This document shows positions 28,000 to 35,305 of a stretch of DNA of 64,000 nt, piece after piece. Positions within the stretch are counted from its first letter, which is position 1; the number at the start of each line of letters is the position of its first letter. Below the pieces are notes generated by a model. It was not told the origin of the DNA. It saw only the letters and a list, made by a program, of their open reading frames with translations, and did no database searches. The translations under genes and the position numbers were made by a program. Location of the stretch: NCBI GenBank assembly GCA_964460795.1, contig CAYWRU010000001.1:19116-83115 (forward strand), given 5' to 3'. The DNA comes from an uncultured bacterium. GTDB lineage: Bacteria; Omnitrophota; Omnitrophia; Omnitrophales; Aquincolibacteriaceae.

Positions 28000-28647
28000 T
28001 CACATGTCATGTGCGCCATGTTCGCGCATCCACTGGTAGTGATCGGCCAATGCCTTCTCGTAGCTACGCTTCTTCCGGTACTCCAAGTATGGAATCCGCA
28101 TAGCCAATACCATTGGAATTGTGACGGCCAAGTTGTACATCATGTGCACCTCCGGCCGTCGTATCACAAAGAGCCACGGTGTCCAGTTGTGGAACGTGCC
28201 CGGTTTAGCGCCCGGACAGTCGCACTCACCGAAGTGACTCATTTTCAGAAGTCCGCCGAATCCGTCCTCCGGTGTTCCATTAAAGAAACCCAGGAATTGG
28301 ATTACGGATATCGGCGTCGCTGCGCCGAAGAAGTTATGCCCTGCTAACGCTTGACCGAACAGCAGGGTGTGCTCAAAGAAATGCCACGCTTGGATGTATG
28401 TTGCAATCATCCACCACTTGCGCGCTCTTCCGGTAAACACGTTGCGAAAATGATACAGCCCGTACAGCATCATTAGCGCATAGGCCCAATGCAGCACTTC
28501 CGTGTGCATGAGCCACGGATACCAAGTACCCAGCAAACCACGGGAGTCGCCCATCCGCATGCCGTAGACATACAACTGGATGACCTGTGCTATGTGCTCC
28601 GCCAAGTGAGCAATACACAGCGCAACGAACACATAGAACAGCCCCAT
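28000..28647 (-). CDS. His-rich polytopic membrane protein (215 aa)
   Basis: At least 5 hydrophobic helices with His clusters: HLAEH, HTEVLH, WHFFEH, HNFFG. Confidence 0.6.
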   Translation of the reverse strand: MGLFYVFVALCIAHLAEHIAQVIQLYVYGMRMGDSRGLLGTWYPWLMHTEVLHWAYALMMLYGLYHFRNVFTGRARKWWMIATYIQAWHFFEHTLLFGQALAGHNFFGAATPISVIQFLGFFNGTPEDGFGGLLKMSHFGECDCPGAKPGTFHNWTPWLFVIRRPEVHMMYNLAVTIPMVLAMRIPYLEYRKKRSYEKALADHYQWMREHGAHDM

Positions 28648-28663
28648 AGCGAAGATTCCTTTC

Positions 28664-29467
28664 TTAAGCGGACCTAGACATGGTTATAAGCCAATTGTGA
28701 GTGCTATCGTCCTCGACACCTTTAATTGCTTCTGGATCCTTCTGCCTGGATGTAAGCAGATTTTTCAACGGCTCAGCCGCGTAAGCGTTTCCGGTTCTTT
28801 TCAACTCTTCCAGCCGGCGTATCTCAAGATCGCGCGCCAGCTGTCGCTCACGTCGTCGCATCTCCGCAATTTCGTTTTTCAGTCTTGTGTTCTCTAGAAC
28901 AATGTCGTTGTTTTTTCGGACAATGTCGTTGTTTTTTCGGACTTCGTTCTTAACCTTGCTCTCGAGAACATCAACCTTTTCTACGATTTCCGTGAGCGCC
29001 TTAAACGACGATTCGGCCTTAACGGCTTCTTCAGCGTTCTGGCGTCGACGCTTTTCAAAGTGCTGTACCCAGGCTTTCTCAACCGATGTCAGCAGCTTAT
29101 CGCTTTCTTCTTGCCATTCAATCATGGCCTTCTGACACGCTGCGTACACTTCCTCAATGCTGGCGTCGGCAGGGCTTGCCACGATAGGTGCCACTTTTTT
29201 GTAGTAGCAAATAAGGCGAGAAGCCGTGTACACCACTGCCACGCCTCGCCCGCTAGTGCCGGGCATCGGTGCAGCAAAGCTCTCTGCGATCTCGGATCGA
29301 CCTTTCCACGCTACTAGCTCGAACAACTGCAGGGATGCGTAGTCATCCGCGCTAGTCCTTACCGCCATCAGCGGCTCTTTGCCTCCGTTTTTGAGGCGGT
29401 TAACAAGGGCCGGCGTAAGTACGTGAATTGCACGCATAGTACCGGCTGCCAATACAATCTTTCGCAT
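28664..29467 (-). CDS. hypothetical protein with C-terminal coiled coil (267 aa)
   Basis: Track ORF. Contains an internal 7-aa duplication, RKNNDIV x2. Confidence 0.55.
   Translation of the reverse strand: MRKIVLAAGTMRAIHVLTPALVNRLKNGGKEPLMAVRTSADDYASLQLFELVAWKGRSEIAESFAAPMPGTSGRGVAVVYTASRLICYYKKVAPIVASPADASIEEVYAACQKAMIEWQEESDKLLTSVEKAWVQHFEKRRRQNAEEAVKAESSFKALTEIVEKVDVLESKVKNEVRKNNDIVRKNNDIVLENTRLKNEIAEMRRRERQLARDLEIRRLEELKRTGNAYAAEPLKNLLTSRQKDPEAIKGVEDDSTHNWLITMSRSA
28899..28940 (-). repeat. perfect 21-bp tandem duplication
   Basis: acaatgtcgttgttttttcgg x2, in frame, encoding RKNNDIV twice. Confidence 0.9.
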
Positions 29468-33891: not shown

Positions 33892-34236
33892 TTATCGCTG
33901 AATCTTGTTGCCAGGATGATTGATGATCTGAATGTTCTCAAGCCGCTCGATACGCTTGTCGATTTCAGCCAATTTGCCTTTGACTTCTGGCGTTGTAAGG
34001 TCTTCGCGCAGCGCTTTGATTTCCACCCGTACACGCTCTTCAACTTGAGCTGTGCGCTCAATCCAGCGGCGGTCCATGTCAACCAACTCTGACCGCATAT
34101 TCAATTGTACCGAGTAGAGCGAAGCCACTGTCGTAGCCACGCCGGCCACGACAATACCAAGCAAGCTGAAGAACGTCTTTAGATCGAAGGTAACGCGAGT
34201 AAGCGGTCCGTTATTGTGCTCTTGTTCTGCGCTCAT
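33892..34236 (-). CDS. TM plus coiled-coil protein (114 aa)
   Basis: TM segment FFSLLGIVVAGVATTVASLYSV. Confidence 0.55.
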   Translation of the reverse strand: MSAEQEHNNGPLTRVTFDLKTFFSLLGIVVAGVATTVASLYSVQLNMRSELVDMDRRWIERTAQVEERVRVEIKALREDLTTPEVKGKLAEIDKRIERLENIQIINHPGNKIQR

Positions 34237-34239
34237 GTT

Positions 34240-34615
34240 TAACCCTCATGGCTGTCATGCGACCCCTCCGGTATCCCCTAACCGGAGTCCGGCTACTGCG
34301 GTGAACCGCAGCAGTTCGCGGTAACGAATCGGTACAGCTACCGCTCCACCTTACACGCCCCGGCGTCACCATGGCGTGCTTTCCTAGCCAAGCCGGTACA
34401 TCCTGTAACCGGCCCAACCTCCTAACCTGCCAGTACCTTTGGCAAAGTCGCATGAGGCCCATTTATCCTAATCGGCTGGGCCAGACCGTCCTATATAGAT
34501 TATCGGCGCTGCGGCTATCAGCTTCAACCAGCCCGAAGGCCTGTGGGTCATTCTAGGGCACTGAATCCGCAGGCTACTATTGCCCTTTATTCGCGGTATT
34601 ACCCGCCGACAATTG
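34240..34615 (-). ncRNA. candidate structured ncRNA or long structured leader (class unknown)
   Basis: 376 nt without a credible ORF in an otherwise gap-free genome. At least 9 local hairpins of 5-7 bp, including a C(UUCG)G tetraloop on the minus strand. Possible long-range GACCC/GGGTC closure. Confidence 0.4.
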
Positions 34616-35305
34616 TTATTCTTCCCGGCTTAGGTCGTCGAACATAACTTCCAGTTCCATGTCACCGATTCTGTCGCGGAGATCCGCTAGCTCTTTTTCA
34701 AGGAAAGCGATGCGTTTATCCTTCTCGTCACCCTCCTCAATAACTCCGTTGATTCGTTTAGCGTACGAATCAAGTTGGCCGAAGATGTATTCTTCGCGCG
34801 AAGGAATAAAGTCCTTGTTAGTATTCCACGGCTGCGGAACAAGGATGGCGTATCCGCCGGCTTCTCGGAAAGGGTCTACCTTGTGATCGTTGTCGTCTAC
34901 CAAGATAGTCTGCGGTGTAGCGCAGAATTCTTTGCGCGGACCAATCAAGTAATCACGGCAGTTGAATCCGCCGAAATGCTTCTGCATCCACTTGAGCTTG
35001 CCTGAAGCCGAAGTAGGGTGCGCGCTGGACGATGTAAGGAAGATTGTCTCACCTAGCGCTCGACACTCTTTCCACAGACGCTTAGCCCACGGCGTAAGCT
35101 CGATATCCAACCAGAAGTCTTCGCCGGCGGCGTCAATGCGTTTCCAGATGCCTGCTCGCTGCTCGCTTGTCAGGTGGTGCTTGCTCCACTGGCCGATGGC
35201 GTCAACAAGATCGGGCCGCTCTGCAGCCATTAGTCGAGCGGCTGCGCCGCAGAAGTCGCCCATCACTCCGTCAATGTCCAAACAGATTCTCAATTTCTTC
35301 TTCAT
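34616..35305 (-). CDS. HAD-family 5'(3')-deoxyribonucleotidase-like (229 aa)
   Basis: Motif I ICLDIDGVMGDF (DxDxV), motif II FLTSSS, motif IV ILVDDNDHKV. C-terminal coiled coil. Confidence 0.65.
   Translation of the reverse strand: MKKKLRICLDIDGVMGDFCGAAARLMAAERPDLVDAIGQWSKHHLTSEQRAGIWKRIDAAGEDFWLDIELTPWAKRLWKECRALGETIFLTSSSAHPTSASGKLKWMQKHFGGFNCRDYLIGPRKEFCATPQTILVDDNDHKVDPFREAGGYAILVPQPWNTNKDFIPSREEYIFGQLDSYAKRINGVIEEGDEKDKRIAFLEKELADLRDRIGDMELEVMFDDLSREE

Follow-up and report, generated by a model that had tools for sequence, protein, structure and literature searches.

Two conserved RNA domains share one intergenic gap

A 379-nucleotide (nt) gap between two minus-strand genes of a putative large phage holds, as comparison with related sequences shows, two independent conserved RNA domains, here named module A (34499-34613) and module B (34241-34482), which make up the 5' third and the 3' two-thirds of the gap, respectively. 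The gap spans positions 34237-34615 of a 64,000-nt stretch of DNA (the window), corresponding to positions 19116-83115 of contig CAYWRU010000001.1 (C1) in a 3.7-Mb, 176-contig assembly, and lies between genes at 33892-34236 and 34616-35305. Module A belongs to a large, uncatalogued, phage-specific RNA family, and module B is predicted to be the lineage-restricted leader RNA of an operon. The two modules are separable, because one related contig (L163) retains module B without module A; module B was not seen in any other module A carrier screened. We lean slightly towards an overall account in which the gap would be transcribed together with the flanking minus-strand genes and would encode both domains.

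The original prediction, made from the letters of the window, had described an ORF-free gap (ORF, open reading frame) with at least nine hairpins on the minus strand and a possible long-range GACCC/GGGTC closing helix, and had proposed one novel structured RNA. The only frames in the gap are indeed an Arg-rich ORF of 83 amino acids (aa) that overlaps the next gene and a 61-aa ORF on the plus strand, and hidden amber-recoded coding was rejected, since reading TAG as sense across the gap opened no convincing frame, despite a tRNA with a CUA anticodon on the contig. The minus-strand RNA of the gap folds at -161.5 kcal/mol (z = -4.5) and the plus-strand RNA at z = -4.2; on neither strand did any of 100 shuffles fold as well. 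All nine hairpins are present on the minus strand, and each corresponds to a helix that covaries in relatives: AGGGCA/UGCCCU is helix P2 of module A, GGCC-UUCG-GGCU is its hairpin H3, and the remaining seven are hairpins H1-H7 of module B. Comparison with relatives supported every helix of both modules and revealed no small protein encoded in their place.

A novel minus-strand structured RNA that fits no known class thus stood up to comparison, whereas its unity did not. GACCC is an invariant unpaired or core element in module A members that have no downstream GGGUC, and the GGGUC of the window pairs instead in the closing helix of module B (UCAUGCGACUU/GGGUCGCAUGA), which covaries. Both the minimum free energy fold and a single RNA closed by GACCC/GGGUC are contradicted by the relatives. 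Nor is module A private to this phage, since its family is large and extends across phages.

Neither module is represented in Rfam 15. Searches with its 4227 covariance models, run at gathering score and at E<=10, left the whole window without a hit at gathering score and the gap itself without one at E<=10; a weak snoR79 match (E 6.5) falls inside the neighbouring gene, at 34703-34735. No relevant match was obtained for 10 other module A members, the corresponding gap of Brevundimonas phage Kikimora, a permuted copy (its host intron aside) or module B of L163. ARAGORN found no tRNA or transfer-messenger RNA (tmRNA) in the window, with 16 tRNAs elsewhere on C1. No match was returned by blastn of the 3-kb neighbourhood against phages, no close relatives were found in IMG/VR through the flanking proteins, and no description of either module was found in open-access literature.

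Module A is a compact pseudoknotted RNA

The elements of module A in the window are as follows, all on the minus strand.

34499..34613, minus strand: module A, the whole pseudoknotted domain with helix P0, in the standard strand order
34604..34613, minus strand: P0 5' strand AUUGUCGGCG, pairing with 34499-34508 in a 10-base-pair (bp) helix
34499..34508, minus strand: P0 3' strand CGCCGAUAAU of the same 10-bp helix
34555..34586, minus strand: P2 hairpin, AGGGCA (34581-34586) with UGCCCU (34555-34560)
34567..34572, minus strand: pseudoknot 5' strand CUGCGG, pairing with 34509-34514
34509..34514, minus strand: pseudoknot 3' strand CCGCAG
34561..34563, minus strand: CAG, forming a 3-bp extension of the pseudoknot with CUG (34519-34521) across a conserved 4x4 internal loop of the AAAC/UUAG type
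34519..34529, minus strand: near-invariant GGUUGAAGCUG, containing the CUG partner of CAG; invariant in a 13-member alignment and used as a scan anchor
34530..34541, minus strand: H3 hairpin GGCC-UUCG-GGCU, whose stem is opened in the circularly permuted form
34541..34554, minus strand: near-invariant junction AGAAUGACCCACAG (family consensus YGAAAGACCCRCAG), whose start, between P2 and GACCC, is a variable insertion site

Covariation shows module A to be a compact H-type pseudoknot of about 100 nt, composed of an optional P0, P2, a two-part pseudoknot helix, a variable H3 and A-rich junctions, with about 35 near-invariant bases. The consensus of its 5' half reads optional P0 5' strand, GAAnAAG, P2 5' strand, nnAGUA, pseudoknot 5' strand, nAAAC, CAG and P2 3' strand, and that of its 3' half YGAAAGACCCRCAG, H3, GGUUGAAG, CUG, UUAGG, pseudoknot 3' strand and optional P0 3' strand. 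The loop of P2 therefore holds the conserved AGUA (34575-34578 in the window), the pseudoknot 5' strand and CAG. The window copy, the sole one in the assembly, contains every family element, including the pseudoknot CUGCGG/CCGCAG, and the family covariance model detects it at 34505-34594 (80.9 bits, E 3e-19).

The alignments on which pairs were counted were partly fitted to the structure (A4 by model, A8 by column choice). For P2 and H3, 90.9% of the cells were paired, compared with 64.0% after shuffling, and 59 cells carried double changes compared with 23.2, with 0 of 500 shuffles as good. Both sides changed at five of the six P2 pairs among 21 members, and four of the five H3 pairs covary. 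Permutation of unaligned loop and tail strings, together with slide controls, provided less biased tests. A complementary pseudoknot pair of distinct sequence was present in every one of 22 non-redundant members (for example GUGAGC/GCUCGC, GUUCCAUU/GAUGGAAU and AAUAGCC/GGCUAUU, with CUGCGG/CCGCAG in the window), and the summed helix length was 137, compared with 94.7 +/- 4.4 when the tails were permuted (0 of 20000 permutations as high). The 3-bp extension also covaries (CAG/CUG, GAG/CUC, CUG/CAG, AAG/CUU). P0 directly abuts the pseudoknot 3' strand in nine lineages, each with a different sequence, and is compensated in the related contig L159 (AUCGGCA/UGCCGAU).

Module A is widespread in phages and naturally permuted

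The first lead to the family was the sole blastn match of the gap among GenBank phages, 46 nt in the Brevundimonas jumbo phage Kikimora, within an unannotated gap of about 450 nt in a tRNA array. Comparison of the two loci revealed compensated stems and a common core, GAAnGACCCACAGGCC-loop-GGCUGGUUGAAGCUG. Members were then gathered by core-anchored pattern scans and filtered with the covariance model. A first exact-pattern scan for module A was too strict and gave no match; looser scans of metagenome and viral contigs returned mostly chance matches, from which two and five new members passed the covariance model. The scan anchors being exact and taken from one junction subtype, all counts are lower bounds.

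More than 25 distinct members were collected from viral contigs (IMG/VR), metagenomes, cultured phages and prophage-like regions of Methylobacterium, Afipia, a gammaproteobacterial metagenome-assembled genome (MAG) and a Bdellovibrionales MAG. By blastn, at least 38 records of cultured phages matched when one member was the query and at least 50 when a permuted copy was used, and nearly all of these copies are unannotated. The carriers are phages of Proteobacteria, Bacteroidota and Actinobacteria, across GC (guanine plus cytosine) contents from 37% to 69%. Module A occurs as one copy per genome, the apparent second copy in contig L009 being the other half of a split copy.

The standard order is found in the Rhizobium RHph_N28_1 group (76 bits, adjoining an HNH gene), in Brevundimonas phages and in Microbacterium phage BAjuniper. 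In a second, circularly permuted order, the H3 stem is opened and bears both ends of the RNA (helix S), P0 is closed to a hairpin or a short linker, and the segment GCUC-UUAGG with the pseudoknot 3' strand now lies 5' of P2. Among seven permuted members, 97.2% of the cells are paired, and seven of seven S pairs and five of five pseudoknot pairs show double changes, with 0 of 500 shuffles as good. The hosts of permuted carriers belong to Escherichia, Klebsiella, Proteus, Erwinia, Pectobacterium and Pseudomonas; the carriers themselves include the T4-like Escherichia phage mogra and its relatives, Pectobacterium PM2, T5-like phages (Proteus Stubb and PM135, Pectobacterium My1, Klebsiella KpGranit), rV5-like phages (Erwinia Hena1, Klebsiella Mydovirus), the jumbo phages RaK2, K64-1 and Hallingskeid, and Pseudomonas Milchi. 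Vibrio and Flavobacterium phages hold further junction subtypes.

These observations suggest that module A would constitute a new and widespread class of structured RNA, uncatalogued although it lies unannotated in dozens of cultured phages, including phages of E. coli K-12. Covariance models of both permutations would label recurrent "empty" gaps of phage genomes.

Module A occupies tRNA arrays, an intron loop and operon gaps

In tRNA arrays, module A fills the 101-nt gap from tRNA-Met to tRNA-Arg in mogra, and lies between tRNA-Gly and tRNA-Glu in Hena1 and between tRNA-Glu and tRNA-Ile in Stubb. In mogra, Hena1, Milchi and RaK2, 3-5 nt separate the CCA end of the preceding tRNA from the start of the permuted form, and in Stubb too the tRNAs lie within a few nt of module A. 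In Milchi (L340:575-660) and RaK2 (L345:1150-1185), the sequence directly 5' of module A has a tRNA-like T-arm and a CCA end and is not annotated as a tRNA.

A second setting is a group I intron. Klebsiella phage VLCpiM5b (L334, ON602729.1, about 28524-28863) has its DNA polymerase annotated as two coding sequences (CDSs), split by an intron of about 340 nt, which matches the Rfam group I intron model (RF00028, 69.8 bits, E 7e-18). An uninterrupted homologue of the polymerase reads IYYH|DEYQL at this point, which implies that the intervening sequence splits motif C (YH|DE). Permuted module A forms an 83-nt insertion in the P6a loop of this intron. The first 16 annotated residues of the second CDS of this family-A DNA polymerase are encoded by the intron, and models of module A would help to mend split-gene annotations of this kind.

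In operon gaps, module A begins 2-25 nt past the stop codon of the preceding gene, which is NT5C in the window and elsewhere encodes DNA polymerase B, ribonucleotide reductase, PhoH or an integrase, and the genes downstream of these copies are mutually unrelated. The BAjuniper copy comes after the final gene of its unit; beyond it lie a terminator hairpin and then convergent genes, and it has nothing downstream to regulate.

Several features suggest portability. The insertion site between P2 and GACCC carries an extra hairpin in L007, L191 and a Flavobacterium phage, and a gene for a 137-aa HNH endonuclease (phrog_2255, E 4e-30) in L009, where the split halves keep the complementary pseudoknot AUUUAGC/GCUAAAU. 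Between the sister phages Bambus and Marchewka, module A with its upstream hairpin forms a 112-nt indel, present in Bambus and missing from Marchewka, and the sequences on either side are near-identical. From these comparisons, module A appears to be a portable, self-contained unit, gained and lost as a block of about 112 nt and tolerating hairpins or an HNH gene at one junction. In L069, an ORF resembling TnpB/IS605 OrfB, with a C-terminal zinc-ribbon motif, ends 133 nt before module A; the neighbour was noted given that TnpB guide RNAs run past the 3' end of their gene, and it is probably an unrelated insertion.

An element acting as DNA (a homing-endonuclease target, a promoter or a recombination site) or a hidden small gene could also produce conservation, and the HNH gene inside one member, another HNH gene nearby in the Rhizobium phage and the copies that lie, in some temperate phages, near an integrase gene or a tRNA-like attachment-site fragment would fit such an origin, as would a sigma-70-like match (TTGAAG-17-GATAAT) that overlaps the 3' part of module A. 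This match is at chance level (1 found, 1.1 expected), as were all matches in the promoter and terminator scan of the region, and family members do not share its -10 hexamer. A folded RNA is signalled by the compensatory changes, which affect five helices and the pseudoknot, and by G-U pairs specific to one strand, and there is no conserved ORF, nor does TAG recoding open one. We consider a DNA-level element or a hidden gene highly improbable.

The operon copies raise the question of a cis-acting riboswitch-like aptamer, in which a ligand-dependent pseudoknot would hide the ribosome-binding site or form a terminator and in this way control the downstream gene, in the window module B and its operon. 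The H-type pseudoknot with its many conserved junction bases recalls the SAM-II/SAM-V and preQ1-II aptamers, which share coaxial stems and a hairpin in a long loop. In L016 and L029 the Shine-Dalgarno sequence of the next gene lies in or next to the pseudoknot 3' strand, as in a few members overall, and in L012 and L036 a U-run follows that strand directly. Several members in lytic phages sit among genes of nucleotide metabolism (ribonucleotide reductase followed by ThyX or deoxyribosyltransferase, DNA polymerase, and NT5C in the window). Against this proposal, module A differs from the known aptamers in having no Rfam match and no common downstream gene, and in occurring at operon 3' ends; BAjuniper has no downstream gene at all, many copies lie between two tRNAs or in the intron loop, co-transcriptional switching depends on an order of synthesis that the permutation inverts, and in the window the next start codon is 260 nt away. 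A conventional 5'-untranslated region (UTR) riboswitch was thus rejected, and a riboswitch-like aptamer in the wider sense is improbable.

Module A may act as a stable binding RNA or as a catalyst

Other known identities did not fit either. No Rfam family matched the window copy, 10 other members or a permuted copy, and ARAGORN gave no support for a tRNA or tmRNA. A group I intron was rejected, as neither the window gap, which lies between complete genes, nor 10 other members match RF00028, and nothing lies between the 5' strands of P2 and the pseudoknot, where P4-P6 would sit. The Klebsiella phage intron served as a positive control for this model (69.8 bits), with module A only its P6a insertion. 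An RNA resembling the hepatitis delta virus (HDV) or theta ribozymes would require a nested double pseudoknot (P1-P2-P3-P1'-P4-P2') with a P3 hairpin inside P1. About 6 nt separate the pseudoknot 5' strand from the P2 3' strand, leaving no room for P3; the permuted order (S, pseudoknot 3' strand, hairpin, P2, pseudoknot 5' strand, P2', S') also differs, and no HDV-type model matched. For tmRNA, RNase P RNA, Y RNA, a sarcin-ricin-loop mimic and the hammerhead, the order of elements or the helices misfit, and no model matched.

The closest parallels in setting are GOLLD, ROOL and the T4 species 1/2 RNAs (rnaC/rnaD), which are phage-borne, often located in or near tRNA arrays, and of unknown function. 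Transcribed together with the arrays, they are presumably freed when the tRNAs are processed, and the gap from tRNA-Met to tRNA-Arg that module A fills in Mosigvirus mogra is the same slot. In contrast to these RNAs, with which it shares no sequence or model match, module A is far smaller (about 100 nt) and is also found away from tRNAs and in an intron. T4 rnaC and rnaD were rejected as members, as the module A model, with filters off, reached at most 6.5 bits (E>1) in the T4 tRNA region. The copy in the VLCpiM5b intron resembles peripheral insertions of group I introns, such as the P6a ORFs of T4 td and nrdB or the GIR1 twin-ribozyme, and one free-standing member hosts an HNH endonuclease gene as well; module A differs from them in not being a group I intron itself and in having most of its copies outside introns.

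We tentatively favour, at somewhat less than even confidence, a model in which the fold of module A would be released or kept as a stable small RNA. It would ride abundant or processed transcripts (tRNA arrays, an intron loop, 3' UTRs before terminators, operon gaps) and would not work as a classical 5'-UTR switch. Through its conserved surface, module A might, with similar reservation, bind a factor or ligand common to very different hosts. The kinds of transcripts that carry it, its tolerance in the intron of an essential gene and its roughly 35 invariant bases are consistent with a stable binding RNA. More generally, the breadth of hosts combined with the large invariant surface would point to self-contained chemistry or to a partner common to these hosts.

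Several observations weigh against a stable binding RNA. No protein gene co-occurs with module A across its very different carrier phages. We infer transcript ends, stability and strand from covariation, G-U pairs and gene orientation. The Shine-Dalgarno overlaps and U-runs mentioned above look like those of cis-acting switches. Finally, by analogy, circular permutation and tight adjacency to tRNAs also typify small self-cleaving ribozymes.

This last point leads to the proposal that module A represents a new class of small RNA that would cleave itself or be otherwise catalytic. Such an RNA would cut the transcripts of operons and tRNA arrays, for instance to trim the 3' trailer of an upstream tRNA or to part module B and its operon from the nucleotidase mRNA. 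Like the hammerhead and twister ribozymes, which are likewise small and found in phages and intergenic regions, module A is naturally permuted, the open stem being either P0 or H3. The permuted start 3-5 nt past a tRNA CCA end resembles the tRNA-associated HDV-like theta ribozymes, for which processing of tRNA 3' trailers has been proposed (PMC10879173). Module A also fills phage intergenic gaps without a consistent downstream gene, and its sequence is kept across hosts of 37% to 69% GC, as would suit a function free of host factors.

The conserved bases pull the other way. Small self-cleavers typically have 10-15 invariant bases, a number that the approximately 35 near-invariant bases of module A exceed. 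Its topology and conserved bases also differ from those of the hammerhead, twister and theta ribozymes; the helix order A B hairpin C B' C' A' is not the nested double pseudoknot of HDV-like RNAs, and no Rfam ribozyme matched. Moreover, fast self-cleavage in the P6a loop is disfavoured because the pre-mRNA of the essential DNA polymerase would be cut before splicing. We regard a self-cleaving module A as less likely than not, yet as a serious rival. Equally doubtful is its extension to an unrecognised catalytic RNA of T4-like, T5-like, rV5-like, jumbo and temperate phages that would also be a second ribozyme inside a group I intron.

Permutation, siting in tRNA arrays, operon gaps and an intron, and a nested homing-endonuclease gene form a rare combination, which would point to an autonomous RNA machine or a ligand-binding domain whose target is common to very different bacteria. 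If catalytic, module A would add a class of ribozymes; should it instead recognise a host factor or small molecule, it may serve phages as an RNA tool of takeover or counter-defence.

Module B is a probable operon leader restricted to one lineage

Module B has the following elements, all on the minus strand.

34241..34482, minus strand: module B, seven hairpins, a long-range closing helix and a small Shine-Dalgarno hairpin; leader of the 114-aa membrane-protein gene
34445..34455, minus strand: closing helix 5' strand UCAUGCGACUU, pairing with 34255-34265
34255..34265, minus strand: closing helix 3' strand GGGUCGCAUGA of the 11-bp helix
34386..34419, minus strand: module B hairpin H3, with loop UACAGGAUGU containing CAGGAUG
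34420..34427, minus strand: unpaired linker GGUUAGGA, running into GGU, invariant in all lineages and one of roughly six conserved UAGGR sites
34234..34253, minus strand: small, weak hairpin (one double change) that covers part of the Shine-Dalgarno sequence GAGGG; the start codon AUG of the 114-aa gene comes next

Syntenic contigs were found through homologues of the 114-aa protein (94% identity in L158, 79% in L159, L160 and L162, 66% in L163). L158 and the L159/L160/L162 group share the same 380-nt gap, and the 265-nt gap of L163 aligns with the 3' two-thirds only. RNAalifold on the four lineages gave 75 module B pairs, 21 of them with compensatory double changes. In total, 98.0% of the cells are paired, compared with 91.1% in shuffles and 32-47% when the partners were slid by 1-3 columns, and none of 500 shuffles matched the observed covariation. 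The closing helix changes from CAUGCGAC/GUCGCAUG to CAUGCAAC/GUUGCAUG in L159 and to CAUGUGAC/GUCACAUG in L163.

A more distant relative, L346, was recovered by a scan for the pattern AGCCGGACUC...UAGGGGAU. Its closing helix (GUGCUGAAAG/CUUUCAGCAC) has five compensated positions, and H2, H7 and the conserved linkers are retained. In L346, too, small membrane proteins and a 2H phosphoesterase (44% identity) are encoded downstream of module B, so that in the four related contigs and L346 alike the module is always directly 5' of the membrane-protein/2H-phosphoesterase operon. It is single-copy in the assembly and was absent from all other fetched loci, and the 15-mer GGYAGGTTAGGAGGT used as a probe gave 47 matches, none of which was module B. 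Taken together, synteny and covariation indicate that module B is probably a leader RNA of this operon, restricted to one lineage.

The hexamers CUGCGG and CCGCAG serve both the pseudoknot of module A (34567-34572/34509-34514) and hairpin H6 of module B (CUGCGG-UUCA-CCGCAG, 34293-34314), so that the two modules could in principle swap partners. L163, which is without module A, differs in its H6 sequence.

Module B exposes purine motifs and may be linked to a phage CsrA

The consensus structure of module B holds about six conserved unpaired UAGGR/AGGA sites. The conserved unpaired motifs are GGUUAGGAGGU, CUAGGAAAG, GUAAGGUGGAG, GCCGGACUC, the H7 loop UAGGGGAU (34273-34280) and the H3 loop UACAGGAUGU. 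In this H3 loop, AGGA is retained in all four lineages while the stem covaries, and the equivalent loop of L346 is CAGGGAUG. CAGGAUG is the repeat consensus of CsrB, and we take a CAGGAUG or CAGGGAUG loop in a covarying hairpin to be a classical CsrA site. Compared with all 259-nt windows of the contig, module B has 12 AGG (against 3.1 per window), 5 UAGG (0.54) and 5 AGGA (0.76), counts that fall in the top 0.1-0.2% of contig windows. The copy in the window has 9 GGA and 5 AGGA in 259 nt, with multiple motifs exposed in loops and linkers as in RNAs of the CsrB/RsmZ type.

A cognate protein is encoded on the same contig. A canonical CsrA (62 aa, PF02599, 75 bits) is found at C1:147162-147323, outside the window (L279:4136-4324, minus strand), and is the sole CsrA of the assembly. 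Its gene lies directly downstream of that of a small protein resembling the C-terminal domain (CTD) of the RNA polymerase alpha subunit (PF03118); the gene pair is kept in related contigs, and a 98%-identical CsrA is present in the samples that hold relatives of module B. CsrA was also sought in the carriers of module A, where none was found, as expected.

Our tentative proposal, which falls well short of even confidence, is that module B is a CsrA-bound leader, or a sponge embedded in a leader, for the membrane-protein/2H-phosphoesterase operon. The phage CsrA would, with the same caution, bind the UAGGR/AGGA sites held out by the helices, and binding would control translation of the operon, or the leader would titrate CsrA as CsrB and RsmZ do. 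Like CsrB, CsrC, RsmX, RsmY, RsmZ and the CsrA-bound leaders, module B has many unpaired GGA/AGGA motifs, including the CAGGAUG loop, one site at the Shine-Dalgarno sequence, and a CsrA gene in the same genome. It differs from them in its closed multi-branch fold, in being fused to an operon as its leader and in a density of about 4 GGA per 100 nt, compared with 5-6, and the Rfam Csr/Rsm models gave no match to module B in the window or in L163.

Other observations speak against the CsrA proposal. The enrichment in GGA is moderate, several other windows of the contig reach 5 UAGGR sites, and one GGA site is missing in L163. The sites would mimic Shine-Dalgarno sequences equally well. The co-occurrence of CsrA and module B among close relatives would be expected from shared ancestry alone. 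No CsrA is seen in the contig fragment L346, an absence that means little because the fragment is only 11.6 kb long.

Module B could instead be no target of CsrA, acting on the ribosome as a standby site or sponge through Shine-Dalgarno-like UAAGGAGG mimics, or sensing a ligand as a large leader. The conserved sites UUAGGAGGU, UAAGGUGGAG and UAGGGGAU, which we take to be near-complements of the 3' end of 16S ribosomal RNA, are candidates for pairing with the ribosome. The same operon directly follows module B in every case, L346 with its apparent lack of a CsrA included, and a closing helix with a multi-branch fold is unlike the string of hairpins of CsrB and RsmZ. The phage's own CsrA and the CAGGAUG/CAGGGAUG loop in a covarying hairpin argue in the opposite direction. 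Taken on its own, a ribosome-directed or ligand-sensing leader is somewhat doubtful, and we judge it about equally likely as the CsrA model.

If the CsrA model holds, module B and a phage CsrA before the membrane-protein/2H-phosphoesterase operon would suggest that large phages bring their own post-transcriptional circuits. Two bolder readings, independent of each other, are that module A is a catalytic RNA and that module B and the phage CsrA are the first regulatory pair of the Csr type to be encoded by a phage; we consider them rather unlikely.

Neighbouring genes and the contig

The genes that flank the gap are the following.

34616-35305, minus strand: NT5C-type nucleotidase gene, upstream of the gap
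33892-34236, minus strand: gene of the 114-aa protein with one membrane segment, downstream of the gap

The 114-aa gene is followed by those of the 2H phosphoesterase and an ATP-dependent ligase. The 114-aa protein has no Pfam match and only a best PHROGs match of E 0.0035. Its membrane segment is N-terminal and leads into a long helical stretch that looks like a coiled coil, a layout that resembles the inner-membrane spanins of phage lysis systems.

Contig C1 is 174.7 kb long, with a GC content of 53.8%, compared with about 47% in the other large contigs, and carries 16 tRNA genes (ARAGORN). Its GC content, tRNA load and gene content suggest that it most probably derives from a large phage and was binned together with a bacterial genome. 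One of the 16 tRNAs, at C1:157924-157998 and hence outside the window, has a CUA anticodon (an amber suppressor, labelled "Pyl" by ARAGORN), so that TAG may be recoded in part of the genome.

Another unannotated element, of about 190 nt, was observed after tRNA-Gly in L002 (2611-2801, minus strand), with equivalents in L003-L006. It is kept from Brevundimonas jumbo phages to Caulobacter phage CcrColossus, has a U-run at its end and matches no Rfam family; in CcrColossus, the annotation of a hypothetical CDS covers part of the element. It is probably another small RNA.

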